NCBI GenBank assembly: GCA_016699205.1
Contig: CP064964.1
Span: forward strand, 300,001-332,000
DNA length: 32,000 nucleotides
Direction of reading: 5' to 3'
DNA from: Candidatus Saccharimonadota bacterium
GTDB lineage: Bacteria > Patescibacteriota > Patescibacteriia > 2-12-FULL-60-25
The translations under genes were made by a program, and so were the position numbers. The first letter of the stretch is position 1. The number at the start of each line of letters is the position of its first letter. The notes below the pieces were generated by a model. The model worked only from the letters and a program-made list of their open reading frames with translations, ran no database searches and was not told the origin of the DNA. Below are positions 11,684 to 30,354 of the stretch, one piece after another.

Positions 11684-13002
11684 GGCGTCTGGGTCGTCGA
11701 AGTTGCCGACGAGGTTGTTGAAATAAAGTCACCTGGTCCTTGAAGTGCCGCGTTTACGATTTCCGGACTTAAAACCGGAGCACCGCTTAAGCGCAAGGAG
11801 TTCAGCATCATTTCAAAACTCGTTCGGAAGTTGATGAAAGGTTTGGTGCCGTTATCGTAGACGATCTTGAAGACTTTTCCGTCCCAGGCAAAGAACGCAT
11901 CGAGACGATCTGCGCCAAGCAAACCTTCCAAACCTCCCTTTGTCGTAATCGCGCGCGGACCCGTGGATGGAACACCCGGATTGGCCGCCAAATACCATTC
12001 AAGCAGCGATTGACCCTGAGCATTGTCGACAAGCTCGATGCGATACGTTTCACCTTGACCGGAGCGAACCGTTGCCCTGGATCCGTCCGTTGCATCGAGA
12101 CTTGAGGTCCAACCCTTTGGTACAAAGATCGACCAGCCAGCTGGAGAAACGAATGGCGTCACGAGGCCGGAGTCGACCAAACGGACAGGGGCGGTGGCAC
12201 CTGGGTTATAGAGATGAAACACTTCGTTACCATCGAGGAAGCCGTCGCGGTCGGTGTCTGGAACGCGTGAGTCGGTGCCGAAGACCGTTTCTTCAATATC
12301 AGACAAACCATCCGAGTCGGAATCGAGGCCGCCAGGCGGCAAGCTTGGCACAACCGGGGCAGGGATCGTGGAGGCAACATCGACATTTGCTTCGTTTGAT
12401 GGCGATGACTCTCCGCCTGCGCCGATCGCGATCACACGATAGGAATAGGATCGACCAGCTTGAACGCTTACGTCGAGGAAGCTCGTGCTATTAGAAGGAA
12501 GGTTGGTGACCGGAACATAGGTAGCAGCTGTTTCTCGGCGCTCTAATCGATAGCCCGTCTCATCGCCAGCTGTATCAATCCATGCCAAGGCCACGGCGGT
12601 TGTGCCGCTAGCGATCGACGCTGTGAGGTTAGAGGCGGCGTTAGGAGGCGTACGAACGACCACCGGAGGTGTAACAACTGGCTGTGTGGGCGGCTTGAAC
12701 AACAGGTCGCGGTTGAACCAGACAAAGCCGCCTACAACCAAGAGCAAAAGGATGATGATGAGTACAACAAAAGGCCAGATCGGGCGCTTTGGCAGCGGAC
12801 CAGGCATCGGGGCTTTGGCAGGCGGTGGAACAACCGGTTTTGGTAGGGCCGACTTTTCCATCTCGGCTTGCGTCTTTCCCTCCATCTTCAAAGCCATGCC
12901 ATAGTATTTTTCTGGCATCACGACAATCTCCGGTCCTGCATTAGCAGGACCGGATGTTGGCGGCTGTTGAGCGGGAGCGCCTGGAGGCGGAGGGGGCAAC
13001 AT
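11680..13002 (-). CDS. single-pass membrane protein: Pro-rich N-tail, FN3 domain, thrombospondin-type-3 repeats, unassigned C-domain
   Basis: MLPPPPPGAP... tail. TM helix WPFVVLIIILLLLVVGGFVWF. FN3 pattern (ALAWIDTAGDETGYRLERR...SYSYRVIAIGAGGESSPSN). TSP3 DxDxDG repeats (DSDSDGLSD...DTDRDGFLDGNE). Confidence 0.75.
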   Translation of the reverse strand: MLPPPPPGAPAQQPPTSGPANAGPEIVVMPEKYYGMALKMEGKTQAEMEKSALPKPVVPPPAKAPMPGPLPKRPIWPFVVLIIILLLLVVGGFVWFNRDLLFKPPTQPVVTPPVVVRTPPNAASNLTASIASGTTAVALAWIDTAGDETGYRLERRETAATYVPVTNLPSNSTSFLDVSVQAGRSYSYRVIAIGAGGESSPSNEANVDVASTIPAPVVPSLPPGGLDSDSDGLSDIEETVFGTDSRVPDTDRDGFLDGNEVFHLYNPGATAPVRLVDSGLVTPFVSPAGWSIFVPKGWTSSLDATDGSRATVRSGQGETYRIELVDNAQGQSLLEWYLAANPGVPSTGPRAITTKGGLEGLLGADRLDAFFAWDGKVFKIVYDNGTKPFINFRTSFEMMLNSLRLSGAPVLSPEIVNAALQGPGDFISTTSSATSTTQTP

Positions 13003-13005
13003 AGT

Positions 13006-13854
13006 TTAGAGTGTGCAGTCAGGCTTGGAGCATTTACCTTCTCCACGAGGATTGTAGCCGTTCTTGATTTCTGCTCCGTCATCGTAGGTATCGCGGTCGG
13101 TGTCGCGGTTTAGAGGATTCGTGCCATACTTCATGACCTCATCGCCATCACTCGCTCCGTCTACATCTGAATCTGGTTTTGCCGGATCGAGACCAAGCTC
13201 GGTTTCACGACGATCGGATAATCCGTCTCCATCCGCATCAGCTTCTGCCTGCATCGTGGTTGTGGGAACTTCATCGACTGGCGGCGGATCATTGGTAACA
13301 CTGGTCGGAAGAGGGATACTGACGCCGTCTGGAGGAGTTGTGACTGGAGGAAGGATCGGCGTTGGTTCAGGTGTTGGTGTTACGGCTGGCGCAGATGCAG
13401 GTGCGGAAGGAACCGGCGTAGGTGTTGTTGGCTGTGGCGTCGGCGTTGTCGTTGTTGATGGTCGTGTTGGCGGCGTGATCACGGGCGGAGTTACCGGCGT
13501 ACGAATCACGAACCACCAAAAGGCGAATCCCGCACCAGCGACAACAAGCAGAACAACGACGATGATTGCAAAAATTCTTCCGTAAGAAACATGGTGGACG
13601 ATCTCTGGCGCAAGCGGTGCTGACGGACGTGCGCCCATACCAGAACTACCCGGCTTCTCCATGTTGGAGAAAATATCCTCTGGCTCTGCTACGCCCGGCT
13701 TGGGCGCAGGTACTGGAGCAGGAGCGGAAGGCACAATTGGCGGTGCTAAAGGCGGAGCCGTGGGCGGTGTTGGCGGGGGCGGCGGAACAGAAGAGCTAGC
13801 CCGAGCCGGAGGAGGCGTCAGCGGTTCAAATGGAAGATTTGCAGGAGGGTTCAT
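13006..13854 (-). CDS. single-pass membrane protein with Pro-rich tail, Pro/Thr linker and TSP3 calcium-binding repeats
   Basis: About 95 aa of Pro-rich N-terminus. TM helix IFAIIVVVLLVVAGAGFAFWWFVI. PT-rich stalk. DADGDGLSD, DSDVDGASDGDE and DTDRDTYDDGAE repeats. C-terminal NGYNPRGEGKCSKPDC. Confidence 0.75.
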   Translation of the reverse strand: MNPPANLPFEPLTPPPARASSSVPPPPPTPPTAPPLAPPIVPSAPAPVPAPKPGVAEPEDIFSNMEKPGSSGMGARPSAPLAPEIVHHVSYGRIFAIIVVVLLVVAGAGFAFWWFVIRTPVTPPVITPPTRPSTTTTPTPQPTTPTPVPSAPASAPAVTPTPEPTPILPPVTTPPDGVSIPLPTSVTNDPPPVDEVPTTTMQAEADADGDGLSDRRETELGLDPAKPDSDVDGASDGDEVMKYGTNPLNRDTDRDTYDDGAEIKNGYNPRGEGKCSKPDCTL

Positions 13855-13885: not shown

Positions 13886-14626
13886 TCAGGGAATACATGT
13901 CTCGCGAGCGCAGCGGCCTGGACCAAGCGGATTATACCCTGATTGTACCTCGCTACCGTCTTTAAAGGTGTCATTGTCACTGTCGGCACGGAGCGGGTCG
14001 GTTTTATAGGTTTCAACTTCTTGGCGATCCGTGAGTCCGTCTCCATCCGTATCAGCATTGTTTGGATCCGTACCGACATTTCTTTCCTGTTCTATCGTGA
14101 GGCCATCGCCGTCGGCGTCGGGACTTGGAGTTGCTGCCGCTGGCGCCTCGGGCTGAGACGGTGTTGTTGGCGAGGAGGTCACGGATCTCGTTGATGAGAC
14201 CGTAGAGAGACGGCGATTCGTTTCTTCAATTCTCTTTTCCACCGCCCCTGCATCCGCCTGCGTTGGATTTGATTTAAGAACGTTTACTTCTTCCGCGTCA
14301 TTATACCCGTCGCCATCCGTATCCCCTTCTGCCGGGTTAGATCCAAGCTGCGCTTCTTGATCATCGCTCAAGCCGTCACCGTCGGTATCTTTTGGCATTG
14401 CTGCTATGCGCTCAAGCTCCTGTTCTGCCAACCGCGAACGCTCTGCATTCATTTGACCATTTCCAACCGGTACGAGGACCGCAGGACCAGAAGGCGTGTT
14501 GATCGTCGTGATCGGCTGCAGATCCGCGGTAGCTCGGATGCGAAGAAGCACGACAAGAATAATAAGACCGACAACGGCTATGCCGCTGAGGATCGAACCG
14601 ATAATAATGAGTTGTTTTCGTTCCAT
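13886..14626 (-). CDS. single-pass membrane protein with two blocks of TSP3 calcium-binding repeats
   Basis: N-terminal TM helix LIIIGSILSGIAVVGLIILVVLL. DTDGDGLSDDQE, DTDGDGYNDAEE, DADGDGLTIEQE, DTDGDGLTDRQE and DSDNDTFKDGSE repeats. C-terminal SGYNPLGPGRCARETC. Confidence 0.75.
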   Translation of the reverse strand: MERKQLIIIGSILSGIAVVGLIILVVLLRIRATADLQPITTINTPSGPAVLVPVGNGQMNAERSRLAEQELERIAAMPKDTDGDGLSDDQEAQLGSNPAEGDTDGDGYNDAEEVNVLKSNPTQADAGAVEKRIEETNRRLSTVSSTRSVTSSPTTPSQPEAPAAATPSPDADGDGLTIEQERNVGTDPNNADTDGDGLTDRQEVETYKTDPLRADSDNDTFKDGSEVQSGYNPLGPGRCARETCIP

Positions 14627-14629
14627 ACA

Positions 14630-17600
14630 TTAGGATCCTGGGCTTTGAACCGGGCCAGGCAATGGTACGCCTTCCCCTGGGAAGGTGTCTCCGTATTGAT
14701 GAGAACCATTACACAGCAGCAAGCCTCTGCCAGCGCCAGGGATCGTGATAGCTCCGCTACCGGCCTCCTGTGAGAACACGTGCCAATATTTACCCTTGCG
14801 GTCCAGCGGCTCATCCGAACATCCGGCATCGGTCGGAACACTTGTCGGAGGCTTCACAACGAAAAGGCGATCTTCCGTTACGATGCGCACCGTCGTCGAG
14901 ACACTCTCAAAATATTGGTAGGAAGGAATGCTGGGCGTGATGGTCGGGGACCAATCGACCAAATAATATCCGTAGCGGCCGGTTAGCGCCCAAGTTCCAC
15001 GTTTGTACTTAATGGTTTGAGGAGAGACATCAAAGCTGCCGCAGCCTACTGATCCATCACTGTGGAAACAGGCGAGGAAGCCATGTGGGTTTGCGCCATC
15101 AATATCCGGATTTCCTGGGCCGCCATAGTAGATGTCGCGCGTTGGTGCCATCGCCGTAGGCAATGTCACATGCGCATCGGTGAATCCGCCTGGCGGCAAT
15201 TCACCGTTCCATGTCTGGATGACGAGCGTCTCATCGCGGCCAACGCGGGGGGCGAGATAGATTTTGCCCTCCGTGTCATTGATACCGCGCGACAAGAAGT
15301 TATTATATCCGAATGTCTGCGACTCAAATGGCCAGTAACCGCCGTTACGAGCCTCATCTGGAGCTGTCAAACCTGAGGGCCAAATCTGACCTCTACACTC
15401 TGGGCGACCTGATGCATTACCCGTACACGGATTATCCTGATAGTAGTCGACGACGATGCGGTACTGAGAACAGGCTGCGACACGGTTGATGTTGTTGAAT
15501 CTGAATGTTCCGTCTGAGCCTGTATAGGTCTCACCGATGCGAACGCCTCGGCTGTAGAGCGTTACGCGAGCGTTTGGAACTGGCTGGTTGGAGTAGATGG
15601 CGTCGAAAACTTGGGCCGTAATTTCGCCGTCACCCTCTTCCTCGCTGCATCGAGCACAACCGTTGAATCCACAACCCGTATTACAACTTACTTGATCACC
15701 TCGCGGATCATGAGGTGTTGCGCACAAGGTGCCTGGAGCACAAGTGCTCGCGTTAGGCATACAAGCCGCTTCTGCGCCGATCGCAGGGAGCGCAGCGCGC
15801 GTCAAGCTTCCCGGAACCGATTCCGTATCCGTTGTGATGCTGAATCGACACAAACCGATATCAGAGATAGAGGTGGCATTACGGTTTACGCAGACAATTT
15901 CACCCGTTCGCGTGTCTCGAATATACGGATAGTGCGCGCAAGAGACCTCTCTCGCATAGTCGTAGCCGAGCTCGCGACAAGAAGGCGTCGGATCATTTGT
16001 CGTTGCCGGGTCTCCATCAAAGTCTGTGCGATCACACTGTTCAGGACCTTCTTTTACGGCGTTACCGCAGAATCCACCGGAACTAGCAACTTGGCGGCAC
16101 GTTGCGGAACAAGAGAGACAGGTCGATCCGTAGTCGGCATCACATGAGAGCGTGCCGTTTCTTGGGCCATTATCACATTCTTCTGTTCCAACGTTTACAA
16201 AGTTGTCGCCGCAGATATTGCGCTTACACAAGCTCGTGCAAGAATCGGTGTTGTTGCGGTTACCATCATCACACTCCTCTGCCGGATCGACGCGGCCATC
16301 GCCACAGGAACCGATTGGCTGACATGCTGACCAGTCATTGAATGAACAGGCATCGGCTAGAGTGGTATCACTCTTACAGGAACGGACGCGCTGTGTTGGG
16401 TATTGAATACAGGACCCTTCATCGCGTGTCGGAACGGTGAGGAGACAGTCAGCGTTGGTCGTACAGCTGTCGTCGAGCAAGCTATTTCCATTCATGTCGT
16501 TGGAACAAAGTCCAAGTGTTCCGGTACAGGCAAGCAACGCTCCAGCACCAGAGCCGCCACAAGTGAAGCCGGCGCCACAGTCGGCGTTGGTGTCACATGG
16601 CGAGAAGCGATTTGGTCCGTCGATACAGAGGGCTTTATTGGAAGCCTGTGTGTTTCCATCACACTGTTCATTTGGAGCGGTGATCGAGCCATCGCCACAG
16701 TAGGGAGCTGGTCCGCGGCAGTCGATGCTGCACGTTGAAGCCGGCGAACAGGTTCCAGGGGCACAGTACTGGCCGTTGGAAGCACCTTGATCGCAGGATT
16801 CGCCTGGCGAGAGACGACCATCACCGCAGTAGGCATCAAAGCCGGTACAGGTGCGGTTGCAGCGGCCGTAGGTTCCGTTCAAAGCTCCATCGTCACAGGT
16901 TTCTGGGACAGCGAGCGCCGTACAAACGATACTGGAAGATGCGGCATCGCGAGGATCGCGACACTCCTCTGCTGAACCCGGCGTGTTACAAGCTTGGCCA
17001 TAGCGGAAGCCGGCGCCACCCAAACACTGGTTGCGGTCGAGACGGCCGTTTCCACAGAGCGCGTTGGCGACACAGATACTTGAAGGCGAGTCGACGAAAG
17101 ACGTACAGCGATCACAGACTTGGAGCTTGGTTCCGCTTGGAACAGCGGCTGTGGAACAAGCGGCCGGGCGCGTATCGCCTACTTCACAAATTTCACCAGG
17201 ACCGATGACGCCGTTACCACAGATGGAATCGTTGCCGAATGAGCTGCCGTCACACAATCCGCCATATCTCCAGCTACCGCCTGTTGCGACACAGCTACCC
17301 GTTGAAAGCGGAGGGCCGCCAGGACCTGGGACCGTACAGTCGGAATCGACATTACAAACGGAATCGATGTTGGTACAGCGGCGGATTTCCGAAAGAAGGC
17401 GCGGTCGATAGCGGTCAGCAGACGGACCCTCCAATTCCGTGGAAAGCTCATAGCGCTGACCAGCGTTCAATGCGCGGTATTGATAGATGCGGGATACCGA
17501 GTGCTGGTTCAGATCTCCATACAAGGAGCACCGCCCGTTGCACAAATACCACAAGTTAAGAAACGGTTGACCGGATCTGCCGGAGGCGTTGTACCAAGCT

Positions 17601-17632
17601 CGGCGGTGAAGGCGCCCTGCCAGCTCGGCCAA
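14630..17632 (-). CDS. cysteine-rich repeat surface protein, probably the C-terminal part of a split giant gene
   Basis: At least 7 CG[ND]G/CGDN...GE.CD.GN units (for example SCGDGRVDPAEECDDGNRNNTDSC). A CarboxypepD_reg-like module (ARVTLYSRGVRIGETYTGSDGTFRF), then a beta-rich unassigned C-domain. The ORF has no ATG for about 380 codons and no signal peptide, and the tracked 'M' is a TTG inside the preceding ORF. The start is therefore unresolved. Confidence 0.7.
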   Translation of the reverse strand: MAELAGRLHRRAWYNASGRSGQPFLNLWYLCNGRCSLYGDLNQHSVSRIYQYRALNAGQRYELSTELEGPSADRYRPRLLSEIRRCTNIDSVCNVDSDCTVPGPGGPPLSTGSCVATGGSWRYGGLCDGSSFGNDSICGNGVIGPGEICEVGDTRPAACSTAAVPSGTKLQVCDRCTSFVDSPSSICVANALCGNGRLDRNQCLGGAGFRYGQACNTPGSAEECRDPRDAASSSIVCTALAVPETCDDGALNGTYGRCNRTCTGFDAYCGDGRLSPGESCDQGASNGQYCAPGTCSPASTCSIDCRGPAPYCGDGSITAPNEQCDGNTQASNKALCIDGPNRFSPCDTNADCGAGFTCGGSGAGALLACTGTLGLCSNDMNGNSLLDDSCTTNADCLLTVPTRDEGSCIQYPTQRVRSCKSDTTLADACSFNDWSACQPIGSCGDGRVDPAEECDDGNRNNTDSCTSLCKRNICGDNFVNVGTEECDNGPRNGTLSCDADYGSTCLSCSATCRQVASSGGFCGNAVKEGPEQCDRTDFDGDPATTNDPTPSCRELGYDYAREVSCAHYPYIRDTRTGEIVCVNRNATSISDIGLCRFSITTDTESVPGSLTRAALPAIGAEAACMPNASTCAPGTLCATPHDPRGDQVSCNTGCGFNGCARCSEEEGDGEITAQVFDAIYSNQPVPNARVTLYSRGVRIGETYTGSDGTFRFNNINRVAACSQYRIVVDYYQDNPCTGNASGRPECRGQIWPSGLTAPDEARNGGYWPFESQTFGYNNFLSRGINDTEGKIYLAPRVGRDETLVIQTWNGELPPGGFTDAHVTLPTAMAPTRDIYYGGPGNPDIDGANPHGFLACFHSDGSVGCGSFDVSPQTIKYKRGTWALTGRYGYYLVDWSPTITPSIPSYQYFESVSTTVRIVTEDRLFVVKPPTSVPTDAGCSDEPLDRKGKYWHVFSQEAGSGAITIPGAGRGLLLCNGSHQYGDTFPGEGVPLPGPVQSPGS
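16020..17380 (-). repeat. array of Myxococcus-type cysteine-rich repeats (protein level)
   Basis: Read in translation: CGNGVIGPGEICE, CGNGRLDRNQC, CGDGRLSPGESCDQG, CGDGSITAPNEQCDGN, CGDGRVDPAEECDDGN, CGDNFVNVGTEECDNG, CGNAVKEGPEQCD. Confidence 0.7.
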
Positions 17633-20600
17633 CGGCTGTTGCTCATGGTCTGCAAGAAGGAACCGGTCTGAAGATCAGGATATTTGCTTGTGCGTTCTTT
17701 GACGGACTCAAGCGAGTCGCTCATGCGCTGGAAGTCGGCGATGCGCTTGATGTCGCGCTGCATCTTGGTCTTGAAGCTGGCACAGCGGAGATTACGGTTC
17801 TGATTGAGACATTCCCAATCTGCCGTACAGGCAACAGAACGACCATCGGCACCGCGGAATGACTCACCGGCTACACGAGCGCCATCGGCCAAAGCGTAAA
17901 CACAGGCGTTCTGCGAATCTTCTTGCAGGTTTACGTTCAGGACAAAATTCTTGACCATCTGATCAAAAATATCGATCGTTTCTGGCTGTGCGTCCGGATT
18001 GCGGGAGATAACGTAAATATTTGGATAAATATCGCCGGAAGCGAGACCTGTCGTGTTTACAGCGCCGATGTAGACCGTGTTGCCATCTTGAACCGCTTCG
18101 TAACCATCGACCGTGATCGCTTTTGGCGAACCGGAGAAACCCTTGGAGGCGTACCAAGCAGATGGCGACTGGTGAAGTGGGTTGGCAACGATACGGATAC
18201 CGATACCATCGCCGCGGAGAGATGGTTCATTGAAGGTAAAGAGATATTGGCGAAGAATTCCGAGACCAGCGTCAACCGGAGACGGAGCCACACCCGCGAC
18301 ATCCATCGCTGGAAGATCATCCGCTGTACCGGCAGCGTTTTTGTCGCGGCAGTAGAGCGTCGAGAAGTTGTAGTAGACACCGCTTGCGGCAAATGTTGGT
18401 TCGTAGAGAGCAAGCGAATCGGAATCAAGACTGTCCGAGAATGGTGCGACGGTGCGTGCTGGCCACGGATTTTCACACAAAAGCACGGTCGCGAGTTCAC
18501 TGCCGCGAATAATACGATTCGTTGACGACGGAACCGTGATTTCATCGTGCGTGATACGGATGCCTGTTGAGACATACGCCGTACCGTTTTTGTTACGGGC
18601 GGCACCGGTTGCGCGGACAGGATCAGCACCCGGGGTTACACCGAGAATCGTGTCATCGGATGTGTTCCAGAGATCCCAAGTCCAGTCATATTCTGCGACC
18701 GTTGAGAGCGGGACGTTGCGTCCATCCTGCAAAGAAACCGGAACAGCCGTGTATGGATGCTCTTCCGCTGGAGCGACGTACAAGTTTGGATGCTCCGTGC
18801 TTAGATCGCGGACATCGATAGAGGAAACGGTACAGATGTTTGCGCCTGTGCGGAAATTCCACTGGATCGGGCCGTTGGATACGACGCCACGGAAGGTGCG
18901 GACACCATCCCTAACGGCCGGATTATCGAGCAAGTCATTGTCGCCGCGGAAGGTGATGCGGTATTCCGTATTTGGCTTGAGTGCACGCTCAAGCGAGAAC
19001 GTTACGATAGAACCCGTGCTCGTATTACTGGAATCGATGTTGAGGCGGCCGCGCACTTCTCCGACACAGAAGACATCGGCGTTGGCTGGCTGAGCGTTGA
19101 ACATCGAGATGAAATTCACCCAAGCCTTCTGCCACCATGGCAGGCCGGTTGTATCGATCTGCATGACGGTCGTGGTTGTGCCTGCGGGACAGACCGCTGC
19201 TGCGCCAACGATACGTTCAGCCACGACAAAGTTGGCGCGTACCGAACCTTCGTCGAGACGTGTGTTGAAATTAGCGGTGATGAGCGCGTTGCGGCAGATA
19301 CCCGTGCCGGTCGGAAGGGCTGGCGGATATTGCGAAACAACGGTGGGACGAGGGGCGCAGCAGCCGTGATCGTCGAGGCCGGTTCCGGCAGGACAAGATG
19401 ATTCTTGTGTGAATCCACACTGCAAGCCGTACGTTGCATTGCCCGTCTTGTCATCGTAGACAGCGCGGACGGTGGAGAGCATGCGGCCATCGGTATCCGG
19501 TTCACGATCACCAACAATTTCTGCGAGCTGGAGCGCGTCCGGCAAACCATCGCCAGAAGCGACTTCACAAGAGTTGATTTCACCCGGACCCGTGACGCCG
19601 TCGCCGCAGAATGAAGGGGTTCCGTAGTCTGGAGACGAGCCTTCCGCGAGACAGGTTGCGCTACAGCCGTCACCCTGGTTGCGATTGCCGTCGTCACAAT
19701 CCTCCCCTGCTCCGATAGAGCCGTTGCCACAGCAGTTACCAGCACCAGAACCCGAGCATGCTGACGTACCAGTTCTCAAACACGTTGTCGTGTCGCAGCC
19801 AGCCGGGAATACGCCGCCGACGCGGTCACAAGTTTCGCCTGGCTCAACCGTACCGTTACCACAAAGTGCGAGCACAGCTGAAGAACCCTCGTGGAGACAG
19901 ATCGAGCTGCAGCCGTCGCCGTTTGCGGTGTTGCCGTCGTCACAAGCTTCACCATCGCCAATGGAATTGTTTCCACAGGTTGAGCCGCCTTCGCTTGAAC
20001 CAAGAAGCTGACAGTCGCTGAAACAACCAGGCGTGGTTGAGGATGCCGCGCCAGGATCACATTGTTCACCGCGATCAAGAAGACCGTTGCCACAGCTTCC
20101 ACCGACAAGAGGACGCCACAAACAGCTTGAGTTACAGCTTGCGGATGGCGAACCATCATCACACTCTTCTCCGCCTCGTGAACCCGGAGGCAGTAAACGA
20201 CAGGCGTCGCCGTGAATCGTGCGGCAGCCTACAGCGCCAGCGCCCGAAGTCGCACATGCGCCGCTACCGGCTGCGTTGCGGCAGTAGTTGGCATCCGTTG
20301 TTTCAACAACGCGGTTTCCACAAGAAGCGACGCGGCCATCGAGACCAGCGGCTCCGCGCGGTGTGCAGCGATTTGAACAACCCGGACCAATCGCAGGATT
20401 TGTATCAACAAGACCATCGGCGACGGTAGAGCCATCGCCACCGTTTACGAATTTGGACACGGTTGGCGTCTGTTCAATCGACCAAGCAAAGGTGCGATCA
20501 ACGATCAGGGGCTCGCCTTCTGCGTTACACGAGTTGGCGCCGGAACGAGGCGTGGCCGTGAATGACTGACGTTCACCAACGGTTGTCTCGATCTTTTCTC

Positions 20601-23067
20601 CTGGAACCATCACGACAGCCTCGACGGTACAGCGGGCATTGTCGCCATCCTTCACACGGAAAATCCATGAGAAGCCTTCCGGGTCATTCAAGCCGGTGAG
20701 CGGGAGACCGGAGCGAGAGCGGAAGGAACCCATGCCGCCCAAAACCGTCATCTTGTAGAATCGTCCGCGCTGCAAAAGCGTTTCCGGAACGCCACCCGCA
20801 CCCGGACGTGTCGGCTCAATCACGAGATAACGAAGAGATGTATCGCCTGCCGGAGCGCCTGGGAGAGCAGTTAGACGGATCGGTGAAGCGCTCAAATCGA
20901 CGGTATCTTCAAAGGTGCGACAATTTTCATTGGTACACAATCGCAAAATAACATTATCGGTGTCGACGCTAGCCGCATCCATCGGAACGTTGAAGCGAGC
21001 CCAAATTGCTGCGTTCAAACAAGCTTCATCACAATTTGGTCCGTATGACTCGATCTTTGGAGGAACGAGACGGATAAAGAGATCGCCGCGACCATTGACC
21101 GAGCGGCCGCCGGAGACCGTGGATGCGTTTACGCGGACCGGATCAGCGCCGGTTTCTGCGTTGGAAGTGACAACCTGATTTTCTGAGACACGGCCGGCGA
21201 CGGAGTTATTCGTAACAGATGCGCGGCCATCGCTCGTGGTCCAAGACCAGTTGTAGACATCGCCACGCAAGACGATACAGGCATCATCTGCGGCTCGAGG
21301 GACGGCGTTGTAGTCTTGATCGATACCGACATCGTCCATGGTATGAGGTGATGGAACGACGTTGATCGAACCGACTTCACACAATGTTCCGGCCGTACGC
21401 GTTGTAAATGTGAAACAGTAAGCATTGCCGGAGCCACAATCATCCGCGTTCTCTCGCATCGGAACGTTGGTTGATGACTGGATGCCGGTCGTCAAAATAA
21501 CTTGGTACGTCGCGACGCCATCCCAAAGAGCGGCGGAGCGGAAACGAATGAAGCCTTGGCCGTCGCTTTCACCGATTTGCGGATAACCGGCGGCTGGTGA
21601 AACAGGTACGGTCGTCGTACATGGCGTTGCACCACCAGCGGTACATTGACGAATGACGAGGCTGGCTGTCGCACCGGAAATCGTGACGGTTGAAGCATTG
21701 AGCGGCGTGTTGAAACGAATGTAGATATCCGAGTTCACACATGCATTGTCACCACCGGTGCGGCCGGACCATGGGGACGGAGATGGCGGTCTTAAATCAC
21801 TACACTCTTCAATGACTCGCGGGTTAACCGGGAGAATACCGCTTGAAAGACGCCATGCGAACATCGCTGATGGCGAGGAGGCTGGACAAACACCGCTGCT
21901 ATCCGAACAGGCACCGCTGCGGCAGCAAACCGATCCGGCGACGGAACAGATGGAAGCATCTTCATTACAGTTACGAACGGCAAAATTTACCGAGTTTGAT
22001 GATTGGCCGGAGACACTCAAATTCACTTGTCCTGTGATCGCGGCTGTTGGTACGCGCGTGTCGACACGCGATGAGGTCCAATCCCCTGCGGTTACAACGG
22101 ATGGGACGCGCGTAGCGCCAGAGCCCGCGAATGTGACGGTTCCATCACCTCCAAAACGCTCACCGATCAAAGCGACTTCCGTATCAACCGGGCCAGCGAC
22201 CGGAACAATGGCACAAATACCTGGGCGAGGTGTTGCGGTGTTTACGACAAAAGGCAATGTATTGCTGCGAACCGTGTCCTGACGCTCAACCTCGACCTGA
22301 TAGGTTCCAGGCGACATGGCTTCATCGCCAAGACCGGCACGGATGGTGCGTGGAACTTTGACCGTGATCGTCGTATCAGACCAGAACGCGACGGAACAGG
22401 CGGCAGGAAAATCCGTGTCAGCGATCGCGACATCGGATGCGCCACGACGCAAGTACACGCGACCAACGCGTGAACCGAAGTTGCGGCCTTGAATCGTTAC
22501 GTACTCGCTAACAGGACCGTTATCTGGCGAGAGACTGACGATTTCCGGACCAGCCGTGACCGTGCGCTCATTAATACGATACGCAACGCTGTTGGAAAGG
22601 ATTCCGCCAGAACGAGCTGTTACGGCGTAGCTTGCCGGAGAAATAACCGGAGCATTGAGGGCGATACGATCATCAGCCCATGACAAGAAGGAAGAAATTT
22701 CTCGGTCGTTGAAGAAAACGCGATCCGATGAAGCACCGAGACCTGTACCAACGAGATCGGTGCGCTCCCCCGCCAAACCATTATTAGGATCAGCGGCACA
22801 CAAACCTGGGCGAGCAACATCGTTTACATCAAATGGATCGAGGCGCGGACCGCGATCATCGTTGGAAATATCATTTAAACCAGCTGCGTTGATGAGTTGG
22901 ATTGGGCCGTCAACAGCACCATCTGGAACGGCGACAACAACCTGCGTACGGGACCAGGTCGGGATACCGGCGGCGACACAGGCGGCAGGAGCGGTTGCGA
23001 CTTGGCCGTCGGCAAAGATGATCTGGCCGGTTGAGCTACCAAAGTTAGAACCGGAAATCGTTACCAA
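17509..23067 (-). CDS. giant cysteine-rich surface protein (IPT/TIG, SbsA/Big_5-like Ig modules, Cys-rich repeats); coding signal continues upstream to 23154
   Basis: 1852 codons. Four IPT/TIG-like modules (VTISGSNFG, TDLVGTGLG, VTIQGRNFG, VALIGERFG). Ig-like modules with the I.IRFN.P[LM][DN]..[ST]V pattern. Six CG[ND]G..GE.CD units. The tracked start is a TTG in the middle of an IPT module, and no signal peptide is present. Confidence 0.8.
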   Translation of the reverse strand: MVTISGSNFGSSTGQIIFADGQVATAPAACVAAGIPTWSRTQVVVAVPDGAVDGPIQLINAAGLNDISNDDRGPRLDPFDVNDVARPGLCAADPNNGLAGERTDLVGTGLGASSDRVFFNDREISSFLSWADDRIALNAPVISPASYAVTARSGGILSNSVAYRINERTVTAGPEIVSLSPDNGPVSEYVTIQGRNFGSRVGRVYLRRGASDVAIADTDFPAACSVAFWSDTTITVKVPRTIRAGLGDEAMSPGTYQVEVERQDTVRSNTLPFVVNTATPRPGICAIVPVAGPVDTEVALIGERFGGDGTVTFAGSGATRVPSVVTAGDWTSSRVDTRVPTAAITGQVNLSVSGQSSNSVNFAVRNCNEDASICSVAGSVCCRSGACSDSSGVCPASSPSAMFAWRLSSGILPVNPRVIEECSDLRPPSPSPWSGRTGGDNACVNSDIYIRFNTPLNASTVTISGATASLVIRQCTAGGATPCTTTVPVSPAAGYPQIGESDGQGFIRFRSAALWDGVATYQVILTTGIQSSTNVPMRENADDCGSGNAYCFTFTTRTAGTLCEVGSINVVPSPHTMDDVGIDQDYNAVPRAADDACIVLRGDVYNWSWTTSDGRASVTNNSVAGRVSENQVVTSNAETGADPVRVNASTVSGGRSVNGRGDLFIRLVPPKIESYGPNCDEACLNAAIWARFNVPMDAASVDTDNVILRLCTNENCRTFEDTVDLSASPIRLTALPGAPAGDTSLRYLVIEPTRPGAGGVPETLLQRGRFYKMTVLGGMGSFRSRSGLPLTGLNDPEGFSWIFRVKDGDNARCTVEAVVMVPGEKIETTVGERQSFTATPRSGANSCNAEGEPLIVDRTFAWSIEQTPTVSKFVNGGDGSTVADGLVDTNPAIGPGCSNRCTPRGAAGLDGRVASCGNRVVETTDANYCRNAAGSGACATSGAGAVGCRTIHGDACRLLPPGSRGGEECDDGSPSASCNSSCLWRPLVGGSCGNGLLDRGEQCDPGAASSTTPGCFSDCQLLGSSEGGSTCGNNSIGDGEACDDGNTANGDGCSSICLHEGSSAVLALCGNGTVEPGETCDRVGGVFPAGCDTTTCLRTGTSACSGSGAGNCCGNGSIGAGEDCDDGNRNQGDGCSATCLAEGSSPDYGTPSFCGDGVTGPGEINSCEVASGDGLPDALQLAEIVGDREPDTDGRMLSTVRAVYDDKTGNATYGLQCGFTQESSCPAGTGLDDHGCCAPRPTVVSQYPPALPTGTGICRNALITANFNTRLDEGSVRANFVVAERIVGAAAVCPAGTTTTVMQIDTTGLPWWQKAWVNFISMFNAQPANADVFCVGEVRGRLNIDSSNTSTGSIVTFSLERALKPNTEYRITFRGDNDLLDNPAVRDGVRTFRGVVSNGPIQWNFRTGANICTVSSIDVRDLSTEHPNLYVAPAEEHPYTAVPVSLQDGRNVPLSTVAEYDWTWDLWNTSDDTILGVTPGADPVRATGAARNKNGTAYVSTGIRITHDEITVPSSTNRIIRGSELATVLLCENPWPARTVAPFSDSLDSDSLALYEPTFAASGVYYNFSTLYCRDKNAAGTADDLPAMDVAGVAPSPVDAGLGILRQYLFTFNEPSLRGDGIGIRIVANPLHQSPSAWYASKGFSGSPKAITVDGYEAVQDGNTVYIGAVNTTGLASGDIYPNIYVISRNPDAQPETIDIFDQMVKNFVLNVNLQEDSQNACVYALADGARVAGESFRGADGRSVACTADWECLNQNRNLRCASFKTKMQRDIKRIADFQRMSDSLESVKERTSKYPDLQTGSFLQTMSNSRWPSWQGAFTAELGTTPPADPVNRFLTCGICATGGAPCMEI
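19560..20400 (-). repeat. array of Myxococcus-type cysteine-rich repeats (protein level)
   Basis: Read in translation: CGNRVVETTDANYC, CGNGLLDRGEQCDPG, CGNNSIGDGEACDDGNTANGDGC, CGNGTVEPGETCD, CGNGSIGAGEDCDDGNRNQGDGC, FCGDGVTGPGEINSCE. Confidence 0.7.
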
Positions 23068-23154
23068 GGTGCCTGGACGTCCATCTGGAGGCGTGATGCG
23101 GGAAATGATCGGCTGCTCTACACAAACACCACCGGAGCAGACGCCGCTCGCACA

Positions 23155-24375
23155 TTAGGAACCACTAGTACACGCGCCACCGGAACAGGCACCACAGCTT
23201 GCACCTCCGCAGTCGATATCGGTTTCATCTTCATCGCGTGCGCCGTTAAAACAATGGAGAGGGCGAACCATGACGGAAACCGTTGCACTGTCTCCCGTGT
23301 TGGAGTCGATATCATGCGCGGTGGCGCGGAGCGACATTGGACCTGGAGCAATTCCAGCCGTATCCCAGGCGACGTCGGCCGTCATATCGCGCACCGTTGA
23401 AGAGCCCGGAGCCGCACCGATGCCGATGGAATCGCTACCAACAAATGCTTCAATAAATGAAACGCCTGCGTCATCAGAAGCTTGGAGCGAAACGATTACG
23501 AGGTCGTCTGCCGGAACACTCTGTCCATTAAATGGCGAGGTGATTGCTGCTGTTGGGTCTGCCGTATCGACGAGGTTGCCGGTTGTAAAGCGTCCTTCAC
23601 AAACAGGAGAAAAACCTCCACAAGAGATCGTTTGACCAGTTGATGAGCGGAGACCGGAAGCGATCTGTGTAATGAATTCCGTATCGCCATCAAAACAATT
23701 GCGCGTTTCATTTGGAGCGGGACATGCGGCACTAGGAACAAATGTCGCGATTTGACCTGTTACGGTAAGCGTTCCGGCAACAGGTGCCGAGTCGGAAGCG
23801 CGCAAAACACGAATGTTAGCGTTTGCTGTTGTGCTGTCGATGTTACGGGAAAGGATGAAGCGAACTTCAATATTGCGGATCGGTACCGAGCCTCCCGGAG
23901 AAATCGAAACAACCTGGAATGCCGAGGAACCGCCGCCGCCTGGCAAGACACCGCCGCCACCAGGTCCACCGCCGCCTCCTCCCCCACCACCACCGCCCGT
24001 TGCACTCAAAAGTGAATTGATAACGAAGCTTGCAATTGCCCAAGATGACAAAATCAGAACAACGCCGATGATGGCGTTACGAATCATGAGTTTGGCGCGC
24101 TCGACTTGCTCTGCATTACCGCCGCTCGTCATCCACAAAAAGCCTGCATACAAGATGAGGCAGAGCATGATGATCGCCAGCAAGCCAAGTGTCACGTTGA
24201 TGATGCGTGCTGCGATGACACGCGGATCTGTTGCACTCAAACCAATGGTACCGCCGACCTCAGCCAAACCGGCGTCGACTTGGGCATGGACGACGGTTGG
24301 AACAAACGCCATCGACCCAGTCATGAGTGACAGGGTCGTCAGGAAGGCGAGGGCCAAGGAGCGGAGCTTGATCAT
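23155..24375 (-). CDS. VirB2/TrbC-like (CPR 'T4SS pilin'-type) N-domain fused to Ig-like modules and a Cys-rich tail
   Basis: Signal peptide ending VHA/Q. Two hydrophobic helices flank YAGFLWMTSGGNAEQVERAKLMIRNAIIG. A G11-PGGGG hinge, then two Big_5-like modules. Ends HCFNGARDEDETDIDCGGASCGACSGGACTSGS-TAA. ATGA overlap with the upstream paralog. Confidence 0.7.
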   Translation of the reverse strand: MIKLRSLALAFLTTLSLMTGSMAFVPTVVHAQVDAGLAEVGGTIGLSATDPRVIAARIINVTLGLLAIIMLCLILYAGFLWMTSGGNAEQVERAKLMIRNAIIGVVLILSSWAIASFVINSLLSATGGGGGGGGGGGPGGGGVLPGGGGSSAFQVVSISPGGSVPIRNIEVRFILSRNIDSTTANANIRVLRASDSAPVAGTLTVTGQIATFVPSAACPAPNETRNCFDGDTEFITQIASGLRSSTGQTISCGGFSPVCEGRFTTGNLVDTADPTAAITSPFNGQSVPADDLVIVSLQASDDAGVSFIEAFVGSDSIGIGAAPGSSTVRDMTADVAWDTAGIAPGPMSLRATAHDIDSNTGDSATVSVMVRPLHCFNGARDEDETDIDCGGASCGACSGGACTSGS

Positions 24376-26270
24376 GGTGTTGGGGTGAGGTCGGAACAGA
24401 CGCCGCTTTGCGAGACGCCGTCACAGCAATTTGGTTCGCTTGAGTCGGCGGTGCAGCGGTCGGAAGCGGCTGGATTGAAGCAGTTCTGGTAAACGTTCTG
24501 GACGCCGGAGTGAACGATTGGCTGATAGGTCGGCTGAACGGCACCGGGAGCAGTGGAGGAAGCTGGCGAGTAGAGACGGTGGTCAATCGTGAGACGGCCT
24601 TTGGTGGCGATGTCGCCGACCCCTGCTAGCGCACCCGTTTCAGTCAGAGGATCTTGCGAAAGCGACCACCACCAGGTGTCGGCCATGCTTGAAGGTTCGT
24701 TGGTTTGAATCTCGACCGTGTCCGAGTTGACCGTGGATGATTGAAGGACGGAATCAAAGTCAGCTGTTGGATTGCGATCGAGCGGAAGATTGCTTGAATC
24801 GATGAGATCACCGGCAATTGGGTCTGTGGATTCAATACGGGGGGCGGAAAGATTTGGCGCGCCACGTGTACCAAAGGACCAGCCGTAGTTGTCGTTACCC
24901 GGGGTTGAGTCGGCGTCGGAGCCTTGGGCGTCGCCGTCGCCATTACCATCGAGCGCGTTTCCAACCATGTCGGTGATACCGTCGTAACCGGAGCCTGAGA
25001 GGAAGGCTTGCGGGGGCGTGTCGGACAATGTTGGCGCTCTCGCGATCACGGCGATCGAGGCGTCCGTTGGCAAACAATAAACCGTACTGCCGCAGGAGTT
25101 GGTTCCACAAGCGAGATCGGTTGTAAATTCTACGGTGCGGTAGCCATTGCTAATCCGGAATTCACCGGAAGGGCGCACCTCTGGACCGGATGCAGGAGTC
25201 GCGTTGACCTCGATATTGGTAAAGCCTGCGGTACCGTTCCATACACCGGCAGCGGCGGTTGGATCGACAGGTTCATTGAAATTGATTTGAACGACGATGT
25301 TTGGCGCAAATGTACCGCCATCGGAAGGAATAACAGCCGTGATACGCGGCGGAGTGTTATCGACAACGGTTGAGACCTGGAATTGCCAACGATAGCCGCC
25401 GGAGAAGGCACCGCCAAAAGCCTGCGTACCGTCAGCAAGAACGATGCCGGAGCTTCCGCCGAGCAACTCGACGGTGTAGTCGGTGTTGCTGGTTGGGTTG
25501 CCCAGCAACTCAACAGGACGAATGACAAACGTTTTGCGGTCTGGGGTAAAACGGACGCTTGCCTGAGCCGAGGTCAGAGCCGTGCTGCGATCACTCGTGG
25601 GATAGATCTTGATCGCGTCGTCGTTTAGGCCGTTGATTGTGCCGGAAGTCGCCTCGGTCCAGTCCTTGATGAAGGAGTCGACGCGAATCGGTTCCTTAAA
25701 AGTGACAACGATCGGCGTGTTACGCGGAACGCCGGTTGCATCGCGCTGTGGAAGATGTGTCTCGATGATGCCGCTACCAAGAGAACCAGCAGAACCCGGA
25801 AAGCCAAAGCCACCGCCGCCAAACGGACCGGTACCTGTACCGCCGAAACCGGTAACACCAGCGAGCTGAGCAAGAATAAAGTTTACGATTGCGAAGGAGG
25901 ACGCAATAATGATCAACCCGATGATCGCATTACGGATGTAAGATTTTGCTTGTTCAATTTTTGCCGAATCGCCGCCAGACGTCATCCAAAGGTAACCTGC
26001 GTAGAGCAAGAGACCGAGGAGAATGATGCCGACAAAGCCGAGCGCGACATTAATGATGCGGCCGATGATGGTAAAAAGATCTGCTCCCCCACCGATACCG
26101 GCCTGGGTTCCGATGACTTCAAGATTCTCTTGCGAGGTTTGTGCAAAAACCGGAAGAACGAATGACAAGCCAAGCAGGGCGACAAACGTAAAAACCGCCA
26201 TCGACAAAAGCGGTCGCACGGCAGTTAACCGTTGTTTCAAAGTCCTTACACGGGATCCGTTCTCAAGCAT
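24372..26270 (-). CDS. VirB2/TrbC-like (CPR 'T4SS pilin'-type) N-domain fused to about three Ig-like modules
   Basis: Signal peptide ending VFA/Q. Helices flank YAGYLWMTSGGDSAKIEQAKSYIRNAIIG. Gly-rich hinge GFGGTGTGPFGGGGFGFPG. Big_5-like modules (PRNTPIVVTFKEPIRVDS..., IVVQINFNEPVDPT...). Cys-rich C-terminus. The start is ATG 26270 or ATG 26201. Confidence 0.7.
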   Translation of the reverse strand: MLENGSRVRTLKQRLTAVRPLLSMAVFTFVALLGLSFVLPVFAQTSQENLEVIGTQAGIGGGADLFTIIGRIINVALGFVGIILLGLLLYAGYLWMTSGGDSAKIEQAKSYIRNAIIGLIIIASSFAIVNFILAQLAGVTGFGGTGTGPFGGGGFGFPGSAGSLGSGIIETHLPQRDATGVPRNTPIVVTFKEPIRVDSFIKDWTEATSGTINGLNDDAIKIYPTSDRSTALTSAQASVRFTPDRKTFVIRPVELLGNPTSNTDYTVELLGGSSGIVLADGTQAFGGAFSGGYRWQFQVSTVVDNTPPRITAVIPSDGGTFAPNIVVQINFNEPVDPTAAAGVWNGTAGFTNIEVNATPASGPEVRPSGEFRISNGYRTVEFTTDLACGTNSCGSTVYCLPTDASIAVIARAPTLSDTPPQAFLSGSGYDGITDMVGNALDGNGDGDAQGSDADSTPGNDNYGWSFGTRGAPNLSAPRIESTDPIAGDLIDSSNLPLDRNPTADFDSVLQSSTVNSDTVEIQTNEPSSMADTWWWSLSQDPLTETGALAGVGDIATKGRLTIDHRLYSPASSTAPGAVQPTYQPIVHSGVQNVYQNCFNPAASDRCTADSSEPNCCDGVSQSGVCSDLTPTP

Positions 26271-29151: not shown

Positions 29152-30354
29152 TTAAGCCATTTTTTGGCTGATAGACCGACGAAACATGAATCGATTCAGG
29201 CTTACGGCGGCAATAACGGTTAAGCCCGCGATGATCGACTCAACCGAGCCAAGCAAGGCTAAAACCCAGCCATTATGAACAATCTCAGGGAAGCCAACAA
29301 AAACCGTGGCGGCGGCTATAGGAGCCATGAAGGCGCCAAGAAACAGTCCGAGGCGGGCGGGGTTGCTAAAATCCTGAACCAAAGCCAGCTTCCAAAGACC
29401 ACGCTTTTCCAGCGGAAGCTTATTTTCCATCTGCTGTTTGCGATAAGCCTGATGATACATACCGATCGATTGGATTGCGGTTGTCAGTGAAAGCGCGACG
29501 GCGGAGAAACCAAACACGGCACCCGCAAGAGCGATTCTTCCTTGTTCGATCAGTGTATCGACGGACAAAACACCCCAAGTCGCAAGGCAAAATACCGGAA
29601 CAAGTACCCAGCCACGCTTGGCGAGCTCTTTCCATGAGAAACCGGAACCGTGCAATGCAAAGAGCTCTGCCGTTTCTGCAAGAATATCATCTGCGGATGC
29701 GGCGAATAACTTTCCGATACCGGAAGCGTAATGCTCGAGTCCGTGCGCAATCGGGCCGACGATTAATAATGCTTTAATAATGCTTTGCGCTACTTCTGTG
29801 CGTGTGTGCGCGTTGTCGAATACGACACGGTTCACGATATAGTCGATCGCGAACGGATAGAGATCCTCATTCAGTTCGCGCATAAATGCACGTTCGTCGG
29901 CACCGACTCCCCCATTGTGCAAATCGACCAGAACGATTTTCTTGAATTCGAAACGGCGCTCCATGATCAGCAACGCATCAGCATTTAAATTCACACCCTG
30001 CTTTTCCGCGTTTACGAGATCAGGCTCGCTAAAAACAGGAAGCTTTCCTTCTCTCAAAAGATTGGGTAGCCATGGAATAATCGTATTATGCTGGGAGTTG
30101 CGCGAAATGTTGTCGACGGCCTTGAGAACGGCTTCTGGCGTACGATCAACGGTACGGATTGCAATACCGAAGCCGCGCAAGAGCAGCTCAGCAAACATTG
30201 CGCGACGCTCGGGCTTGCGCGATAAAACAAAACGTAGCTCAAGGGGCAATTCATCTGCAAGCTCAAGCTCCTCAGGATGCGTAACAGTGAGAATGTGATA
30301 GCGATCGATATGGCGTTTTTCTTTTATACCAAAAAGCCGAGCAACAAGATTCAT
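29152..30354 (-). CDS. hypothetical two-domain membrane protein (soluble N-domain of about 190 aa plus a multi-TM C-domain)
   Basis: 400-aa ORF with ATG start. The C-terminal half has at least five hydrophobic stretches (for example WVLVPVFCLATWGVLSV, IALAGAVFGFSAVALSLTTAI, LGLFLGAFMAPIAAATVFVGF, WVLALLGSVESIIAGLTVIAAV). No family recognised. Confidence 0.6.
   Translation of the reverse strand: MNLVARLFGIKEKRHIDRYHILTVTHPEELELADELPLELRFVLSRKPERRAMFAELLLRGFGIAIRTVDRTPEAVLKAVDNISRNSQHNTIIPWLPNLLREGKLPVFSEPDLVNAEKQGVNLNADALLIMERRFEFKKIVLVDLHNGGVGADERAFMRELNEDLYPFAIDYIVNRVVFDNAHTRTEVAQSIIKALLIVGPIAHGLEHYASGIGKLFAASADDILAETAELFALHGSGFSWKELAKRGWVLVPVFCLATWGVLSVDTLIEQGRIALAGAVFGFSAVALSLTTAIQSIGMYHQAYRKQQMENKLPLEKRGLWKLALVQDFSNPARLGLFLGAFMAPIAAATVFVGFPEIVHNGWVLALLGSVESIIAGLTVIAAVSLNRFMFRRSISQKMA

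Follow-up and report, generated by a model that had tools for sequence, protein, structure and literature searches.

Two genes at the locus

The 32,000-nucleotide stretch analyzed here (the window; contig CP064964.1 of assembly GCA_016699205.1, positions 300,001 to 332,000) is mostly minus-strand coding chromosomal DNA with a G+C content of 47-59% per kb. It contains a locus of Candidatus Uhrbacteria, ultra-small bacteria of the Candidate Phyla Radiation (CPR), that consists of two genes, A and B, encoding 632 and ~3,290 residues, respectively, and both headed by a pilin-family domain. The two genes are adjacent and translationally coupled. A first-pass annotation of the same DNA had described four head-to-tail minus-strand open reading frames (ORFs), and all of these are present: 24372-26270 (ORF1, 632 amino acids, aa), 23155-24375 (ORF2, 406 aa), 17509-23067 (ORF3, 1,852 aa) and 14630-17632 (ORF4, 1,000 aa). 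They are not four genes, however. ORF1 is gene A, and ORF2 to ORF4 are pieces of the single gene B, which is unbroken in relatives; what had been read as two further downstream ORFs is the body of the second pilin-headed protein.

As a reference we used the corresponding locus of GCA_963851785.1 (L001), whose gene A product is 99% identical and whose DNA is ~97% identical to the window. There, gene B spans the whole stretch as one gene of 3,294 aa. It is likewise a single ORF, of 3,302 aa, in an 81% relative (L002/L003), and reaches at least 3,643 aa in a further relative. The fragments in the window align colinearly to gene B of the relatives (98.6% and 92.3% aa identity). Because relatives hold the whole ORF2-ORF4 span as one gene, the locus comprises two genes, the second of which is disrupted here.

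Gene B is broken twice, by an in-frame TAA (GAA in L001) and by a clean, frameshifting 130-bp deletion (L001 18756-18885). ORF2 and ORF3 share one frame and are parted by this single TAA (translation ...ACTSGS, stop, CASGVCSGGVCVEQPIISRITPPDGRPGTLVTISGSNFG...), which is why ORF3 as called begins inside a TIG domain. Neither ORF3 nor ORF4 has a signal peptide, and the two overlap out of frame. Recoding of the stop codon was considered and rejected, since ordinary stop codons of the window are most often TAA (12 of 23) and the ortholog has GAA at this codon. The appearance of the giant gene B as three ORFs in the present assembly is a caution for gene calling. The features of the two genes are as follows (window coordinates):

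24372..26270, minus strand: gene A, intact, 632 aa, with a signal peptide (aa 1-44, ...VFA/Q), PF18895 hairpin, Gly-rich hinge, Big_5 immunoglobulin (Ig)-like modules and a Cys-bearing C-terminus
25851..26138, minus strand: pilin-family hairpin of gene A, ~aa 45-140, with transmembrane (TM) helix 1, a TSGG loop with AK...IRN, and TM helix 2
14630..24375, minus strand: gene B, in fragments 23155-24375, 17509-23154 and 14630-17515; one gene of ~3,290 aa in relatives
24001..24282, minus strand: pilin-family hairpin of gene B, ~aa 32-125, between the signal peptide (aa 1-31, ...VHA/Q) and a poly-Gly hinge (aa 126-150)
23155..23157, minus strand: in-frame TAA closing ORF2; GAA (Glu) in L001
21976..23112, minus strand: IPT/TIG module run of gene B, ~aa 422-800; its first TIG domain straddles the supposed start of ORF3
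19456..20238, minus strand: first Cys-rich acidic repeat zone of gene B (myxo_disulf_rpt / DUF4215), ~aa 1380-1640, by Pfam and NCBIfam
17306..17853, minus strand: conserved Cys-rich internal domain of gene B, ~aa 2175-2400 (L001 18418-19095), cut by the 130-bp deletion
17515..17516, minus strand: junction of the 130-bp deletion relative to L001 18756-18885; the frame shift gives the apparent ORF3/ORF4 overlap
15953..17335, minus strand: second Cys-rich repeat zone of gene B, by Pfam and NCBIfam
15686..15936, minus strand: strain-hypervariable cassette of gene B, ~85 aa, unalignable to L001
14630..15622, minus strand: distal end of gene B, with a CarboxypepD_reg-like module at 15482-15622 (sub-threshold), then a ~280-aa C-terminal region without Pfam or NCBIfam match

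The pilin-family hairpin and the body behind it

The N-termini of ORF1 and ORF2 had been assigned to the CPR "T4SS pilin" family (T4SS, type IV secretion system), and this assignment holds. Both carry the core YAG[FY]LWMTSGG...AK...IRNAIIG, with a signal peptide before it and a Gly-rich hinge after it, and both matched the Pfam family T4SS_pilin (PF18895), with 34.9 bits for ORF1 and 31.1 bits for ORF2 against a cutoff of 26.6. The gene B hairpin scored 28.4 bits within the intact L001 protein and 36.9 bits as an isolated domain. PF18895 was also matched by 40 of 40 aligned family members, and the membership of both hairpins is solid. The N-termini of A and B are 46% identical to each other, and the two genes are paralogous beyond the hairpin too, over the first ~300 aa.

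A profile built from both hairpins retrieved mainly ~130-aa standalone pilins of Uhrbacteria, to which the gene B hairpin is 45-63% identical. The hairpins of A and B are as close to these standalone pilins as the standalone pilins are to one another, and the consensus sequences of the A hairpins (77), B hairpins (62) and small pilins (14) have the same conserved core. As this core is common to all three groups, the fused hairpins are under family-typical constraint and not relaxed like a mere hydrophobic anchor. An exhaustive profile search gave 61,741 representative clusters at E <=1e-3 and 19,825 at E <=1e-10. Among the best 150 representatives, those with a single hairpin were mostly of ~130 aa and many proteins had 2-16 tandem hairpins; a minority combined one hairpin with a long body, namely A orthologs of ~630 aa, B orthologs of 3,284-3,519 aa and an 864-aa truncated B. 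The small, standalone format of PF18895 proteins (~100-150 aa) does not apply to A (632 aa) and B (~3,290 aa).

Two further arrangements of the family were observed. The "polypilins", with 2-16 tandem PF18895 hairpins and up to ~32 predicted TM helices, are common among the top family representatives (for example P0403 with 1,775 aa, P0444, P0389, and P0361 with 552 aa). Uhrbacteria also carry six-gene tandem arrays of small PF18895 pilins (128-267 aa) beside an SBP_bac_1 (ABC substrate-binding) gene. In 12 of 80 species, an additional standalone pilin gene of 123-187 aa, whose consensus resembles the B hairpin, separates A from B. The positions of these genes in the relatives' loci are:

L004 6823-10408, L006 7147-10809 and L007 7209-10809: small-pilin arrays (PF18895); the L006 array comes after a 907-aa protein whose C-terminus matches PF18895 weakly
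~11.7-12.4 kb in most: extra pilin between A and B, in L068, L070, L073, L074, L077, L078, L081, L083, L084, L086, L087 and L089

An AlphaFold2 (AF2) model of the hairpin (pLDDT 78) showed a short helix and two long ones of 33 residues (21-53) and 38 residues (58-95), with the 4-residue TSGG loop linking the long pair. The first-pass annotation had placed a large body outside the cell, and the predicted topology, with a cleaved signal peptide, two helices and a 4-residue loop, agrees with this placement. From the cleavable signal peptide in front and the basic residues after the loop, we infer that both ends of the hairpin are outside, with the Gly hinge and the ectodomain extracellular.

The equation of the hairpins with VirB2/TrbC-type pilins fared less well: its basis is the name of the Pfam family together with published context, and no link by sequence or fold was found. 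Of 40 family members, 7 matched TrbC (PF04956; best E 0.0018) and 20 matched DctQ, an unrelated membrane family (best E 1.5e-4). When the hairpin-family profile was compared with PDB sequences, no pilin, VirB2/TraA included, appeared at E up to 10, and the matches were chance matches only. A Foldseek search of the AF2 hairpin against the PDB gave generic helical hairpins (best E 0.8-0.9) and no pilin in the top 50, two-helix hairpins being too simple for such a test. The published context is a survey in which PF18895 proteins are described as "VirB2-like pilins" of CPR T4SS loci, present in 1,948 assemblies, near virB4 in 1,135 of them and often in arrays of 2-11 (PMC12102498). In Ca. Southlakia, the pilin array sits within an essential T4SS cluster (PMC10633639; PMC12857230).

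Behind the hairpins, the Ig-like, TIG and Cys-rich domains named in the first-pass annotation were recovered, with Big_5, Big_7, TIG and DUF4215 all matched by Pfam. Big_5 was found in ORF1 (50.4 bits), Big_7 and Big_5 in ORF2, and TIG, Big_5 and DUF4215 in ORF3; the DUF4215 and CarboxypepD_reg matches of ORF4 were both under threshold. Taken together, Big_5, Big_7, three TIG domains and Cys-rich repeats above threshold (Pfam, NCBIfam) amount to a stalk of the fibrillar-adhesin type. The two arrays of CG[ND]G..GE.CD.GN repeats correspond to TIGR02232 (myxo_disulf_rpt), which has a cutoff of 20.8 bits and scored 63.3 and 31.7, and PF13948 (DUF4215) scored 34.1 bits against a cutoff of 27 on the intact L001 protein. 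The intact gene B protein contains 159 Cys and two Cys-rich zones. For the reported CarboxypepD_reg-like module the outcome was mixed: in the window the match is sub-threshold (PF13620, 24.5 bits vs 32.3), whereas precomputed PF13620 matches exist in the orthologous fragments P0241, P0243 and P0245 and in gene B of L009. Anchor families of the LPXTG, type I secretion system (T1SS) retention and autotransporter kinds had no Pfam or NCBIfam match in A or B, an explicit motif search (e.g. for LPXTG) not having been run. When the C-terminal 968 aa were used for a homology search, most of the output consisted of DUF4215 matches, and the matches listed were at most ~1,700 aa long, with full-length orthologs missed. 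As 3,300-aa orthologs exist, such a search appears to yield only fragments for giant proteins.

One internal stretch of gene B, aa 2175-2400, is among the better conserved and carries the motif K.QRD.KRIADFQ...YP...P.DPVN...YQYR...RYEL.TELE. The motif of this domain resembles the helix-to-sheet part of type IV pilins and pseudopilins. In a comparison of its profile with the PDB, PulG (5wda) was the second-best match, weak (E 1.3) and in the expected register, and hhalign gave probabilities of 27% against PulG and 46% against a Uhrbacterial type IV pilin-like protein, again weak and in the same alpha1C register. The AF2 model of the domain (9 sequences) was poor (pLDDT 58.6) and had no Foldseek match. 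We treat a pseudopilin-like internal domain of gene B as a possible lead, not as a finding.

Conservation, lesions and surroundings

The conservation of the gene pair was surveyed with one genome per species. A relative of gene A is encoded in 259 species-level genomes; the best 80 of these 259 gene A loci were examined, and 54 of them were evaluable for the intactness of gene B. Gene A falls into more than 120 ortholog clusters with 45-99% identity, nearly all of ~600-660 aa and almost all with PF18895 and PF13205. Those orthologs that carry a name belong to Candidatus Uhrbacteria or the Patescibacteria group, and some NCBI names read "pilin" or "Ig-like domain-containing protein". Wherever the surveyed loci had enough downstream sequence, gene A (600-690 aa) was directly followed by a second pilin-headed gene, apart from the extra pilin described above. 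In 49 of the 54 evaluable loci, gene B ran without a break as a pilin-headed ORF of at least 2,900 aa, either complete as a single ORF of 2,927-3,519 aa (21 loci) or as an open frame of at least 3,000 aa up to the end of the locus (28 loci). It was prematurely stopped in the remaining 5 (L018, L022, L024, L029, L068).

The gene order lepB-hisS-yqeY-A-B-TSP3 is kept down to 50% gene A identity. Across 22 species, gene B is colinear with that of L001 and 35-61% identical to it in each 100-aa block, the last 500 aa being the most variable. Relatives that always encode the pilin domain and the body as unlinked genes, which the first-pass annotation had named as evidence to the contrary, are thus not what the survey returned. 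The fusion of pilin and body is the conserved state in Uhrbacteria and no accident of this genome.

Between the window and L001, dN/dS was 0.035 for gene A and, for gene B, 0.039 upstream of the stop codon, 0.037 over codons 408-2287 and 0.105 over codons 2331-2856. These ratios indicate strong purifying selection on gene B along its length. As dN/dS past the stop codon equals that before it, any decay of gene B would be very recent. The lesions may reflect either a very recent, real loss of the fiber in the population or a variant or erroneous sequence in the assembly. Gene B is also interrupted in other metagenome-assembled genomes (MAGs): a single base is lost in a T run in L009/L022 (~12573-12582), multiple frame changes occur in L008/L018 (11.8-21.2 kb), and early stops in L024, L029 and L068. 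These breaks, too, could be real losses or mis-assembly of a variable gene.

Within gene B, the ~85-aa cassette at 15686-15936 cannot be aligned to its counterpart in L001, despite 98-99% identity on either side of it. The same zone is a hotspot of low identity and indels across the 22 species. A diversity-generating retroelement as the source of the cassette was rejected by inspection, with no formal test, since the alleles are unalignable over ~85 aa and the differences are not scattered. No reverse transcriptase was found among the genes of the window. Synonymous divergence (dS) from L001 was 0.20-0.23 over codons 1-2287 of gene B (window 17516-24375) and 0.04-0.08 in gene A, hisS and the C-terminus of B, which suggests that part of gene B was imported by recombination and that the gene is a mosaic.

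The pair lies among housekeeping genes. Its upstream neighbors are miaA, an EVE-domain gene, lepB (signal peptidase), hisS and yqeY, and its downstream neighbors are two TSP3-repeat membrane proteins, an fn3 protein, ybeY, dgkA, ftsA, ftsZ, nrdR, an HtrA-like protease and pyruvate kinase. Other features of the window are:

13886..14626, minus strand: TSP3-repeat membrane protein, 246 aa; starts 3 nt past the gene B stop codon and is kept 3' of B in relatives
13006..13854, minus strand: second TSP3-repeat membrane protein, Pro-rich, 282 aa (ORF and domain calls)
11680..13002, minus strand: fn3-domain protein, 440 aa, closely spaced from the TSP3 genes on one side and ybeY on the other
29152..30354, minus strand: 400-aa ORF without Pfam match; same position kept in L001, L002 and L010
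3027..3104: tRNA-Asp, the sole RNA gene of the window (RNA gene scan)

Both TSP3-repeat proteins end with a common motif, GYNP.G.G.C....C, and a TSP3 gene follows B in most relatives. The TSP3 and fn3 genes are packed tightly up to ybeY, and the fn3 gene (11680-13002) may belong to the same operon as A, B and the TSP3 genes. In L001, a second giant gene of 3,289 aa was observed upstream at 1-2186, beyond miaB and outside the span of the window. It was rejected as a paralog of gene B, to which it has no similarity; its C-terminus may resemble phage tail-spike intramolecular chaperone domains.

Interpretation and comparison with known systems

The A-B locus represents a known family, the CPR T4SS-type pilins, in a new architecture, in which the pilin module heads large surface proteins and is widespread in one CPR lineage. 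We hypothesize that the locus encodes a fibrillar surface protein, anchored by its hairpin and used for attachment, a reading that we hold to be moderately probable. The proteins would be exported by the Sec pathway with cleavage of the signal peptide, and the PF18895 hairpin is predicted to stay in the cytoplasmic membrane, its short basic loop towards the cytoplasm and both ends outward, with everything past the Gly-rich hinge extracellular. Judged by its domain composition, the gene B ectodomain, a chain of Ig-like modules (Big_5, Big_7, TIG) with two disulfide-rich zones and a variable distal end, would project as a fiber for attachment to a partner cell or surface. The product of gene A would be its shorter, more conserved partner, and the downstream TSP3 Ca-binding membrane proteins would be accessory. 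The hairpin would contact the same partners as the small pilins do, that is, other pilin hairpins and/or a T4SS-type platform encoded elsewhere. It is probably more than a passive anchor, since it retains the exact family-wide conserved residues of the small pilins, and the A and B proteins may co-assemble with these. The first-pass annotation had proposed a membrane-anchoring or polymerizing N-terminus of an adhesin. Of this, the anchoring and the outside body are borne out by prediction, whereas "adhesin" and "polymerizing" go further than the domain content does, no adhesive domain having been identified.

Several observations weigh against an attachment fiber of this kind. Neither the distal 280 aa nor the other unassigned stretches contain an adhesive or ligand-binding domain recognized by Pfam or NCBIfam. 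No homology between PF18895 and classical VirB2/TrbC could be demonstrated. The strong conservation and colinearity of gene B (dN/dS ~0.04) are not typical of fast-evolving adhesins and would suit a structural envelope protein no less than an adhesin. Gene B can also be dispensable, given its interruption in this strain and in 5 of 54 other species. In the Pfam-annotated loci of L001, L002, L008, L009 and L010, no T4SS genes lie within ~10 kb of A and B, and among 36 Uhrbacteria MAGs sampled from Table S1 of PMC12102498 ("Presence of VirB4"), 18 are VirB4-positive. The localization, topology and function of A and B are all predictions.

The absence of assembly machinery from view, as first reported, is correct for the 32-kb window, among whose genes no T4SS or type IV pilus (T4P) ATPase, VirB6 or PilC was found. 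It does not extend to the genome as a whole, as two genomes with the same locus are reported to have VirB4 at another place: according to the part of PMC12102498 sampled here, RIFCSPHIGHO2_12_FULL_60_25 (L072) and CG22_combo_CG10-13_8_21_14_all_47_17 (L048, with an intact 3,285-aa B) are both VirB4-positive. Beside the small-pilin arrays, no T4SS genes are recognizable within 10 kb, and the unannotated neighbors have no T4SS match in Pfam or the PDB. Going by these sampled entries, a T4SS is possible elsewhere in genomes with A and B, yet it looks patchier than the gene pair, a comparison that is limited by the incompleteness of MAGs.

These observations bear on a second explanation, in which the A and B hairpins leave the membrane and become minor or tip pilins in a VirB2-type pilus built of small PF18895 pilins on a T4SS platform encoded elsewhere, so that A and B would be its built-in adhesins, much like the large minor pilins at the tip of type IV pili. 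The hairpins keep the family-invariant residues and their closeness to the standalone pilins, Uhrbacteria possess the six-gene small-pilin arrays, and a small pilin gene stands between A and B in some species; VirB4 in L048 and L072, as reported in the entries sampled, points the same way. Both hairpin ends being outside, the ectodomain would come to lie on the surface of the filament. The literature also notes a missing adhesin for CPR T4SSs, as no adhesin such as PrgB was detected in CPR in the survey (PMC12102498). Against this, no pilus has been demonstrated for any CPR T4SS, VirB4 occurs in half of the sampled Uhrbacteria MAGs while gene A occurs in 259 species, and T4SS genes are missing near both the A-B locus and the small-pilin arrays. 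VirB2 homology is unproven, and a 3,200-aa appendage would permit rare incorporation only. We therefore consider this explanation unlikely. The same low probability applies to the idea that the PF18895 hairpin truly polymerizes, with A, B and the small pilins building a VirB2-class filament that has a 3,300-residue adhesin subunit in a single-membrane CPR bacterium. A giant adhesin covalently joined to a conjugative-type pilus would, if this is true, be a first. The "missing adhesin" of the essential Patescibacteria T4SS would then be at hand, and in lineages that lack VirB4 the filament might assemble without it.

Alternatively, A and B could serve in the cell envelope of Uhrbacteria, building or spacing it as membrane-tethered scaffold or S-layer-like proteins, and not act as an adhesin. 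The broad presence in the clade, the fixed place beside housekeeping and division genes (ybeY, dgkA, ftsA, ftsZ), the very low dN/dS with whole-length colinearity and the co-encoded Ca-binding TSP3 proteins would all suit such a role. Big_5 is a typical module of S-layer proteins, SbsA among them. The breaks of gene B in this strain and several others are, however, hard to square with an essential scaffold. The strain-hypervariable cassette and the recombinant mosaic point to a changing outside partner, and one huge fiber-like chain of more than 20 modules is no typical lattice former, which makes an envelope scaffold improbable. That the locus consists of four independent genes, or is a decaying pseudogene locus without present function, is very improbable: the frame is truly interrupted twice and comparable breaks occur in L009, L008, L024, L029 and L068, but ORF3 starts mid-domain, ORF3 and ORF4 lack a signal peptide, dN/dS is as low downstream of the stop (0.037) as upstream (0.039), 49 of 54 species have one unbroken ORF, and gene A is intact.

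As a hairpin-anchored attachment fiber, the products of A and B would bear on how ultra-small CPR bacteria hold their partners, which is known chiefly from cultured Saccharibacteria. The CPR T4SS with its VirB2-like pilins is essential in the single species tested genetically, and no pilus or adhesin has been tied to this system. Here, a whole CPR lineage (259 species-level genomes) joins the pilin module to proteins of 632 and 3,300 residues, in a gene pair that stands side by side under purifying selection. No description of pilin-headed giant proteins in CPR was found in the searchable literature. The locus is a concrete, testable candidate for a surface organelle of Uhrbacteria, and a natural experiment on the role of the pilin module as anchor, docking tag or filament subunit.

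Among known systems, the CPR VirB2-like pilins, such as the essential six-pilin array of Ca. Southlakia epibionticum (PMC10633639, PMC12102498), share with A and B the signal peptide, two hydrophobic helices, a short loop and the common core ...W-M-T-S-G-G...A-K...N-A-I-I-G. They are standalone proteins of ~130 aa (some 250 aa) in tandem arrays, often near virB4, whereas A and B have 632 and ~3,290 aa and lie in a housekeeping neighborhood with no T4SS gene within ~10 kb (window and five relatives). Mbov_0395, a pilin-like conjugal transfer protein of integrative and conjugative elements (ICEs) in Mycoplasma (NF045849), was matched by both hairpins over nearly the full model length (E ~1e-8), with 33.7 and 35.1 bits, under the curated cutoff of 40; the members of this family are 80-aa ICE proteins.

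The large minor pilins of T4P and type II secretion systems, such as the PilV-type adhesins of conjugative T4P (PMC9045228), follow the same concept of a small module with a large functional domain. They belong to an unrelated class with a single N-terminal helix processed by prepilin peptidase, in contrast to the two-helix hairpin of A and B with its predicted processing by signal peptidase. The large minor pilins of T4P are displayed at the filament tip; a place of A and B in a filament is hypothetical.

Fibrillar adhesins (PMC9210967), including the giant Mobiluncus adhesin (PMC10619420), resemble gene B in the very long chain of Ig-like stalk modules and the variable distal end, and also in Cys-rich repeats capable of cross-linking. 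Gene B differs from them by having no recognized adhesive domain, by being conserved and colinear across species instead of fast-evolving, and by its anchor, an N-terminal pilin-family hairpin in place of LPXTG/sortase, a T1SS retention module or an autotransporter. The myxobacterial Cys-rich acidic repeat/DUF4215 proteins (TIGR02232, PF13948) have the repeat CG[ND]G..GE.CD.GN in common with the two zones of gene B. Those proteins are without a pilin head; in gene B the repeat is one building block among others.

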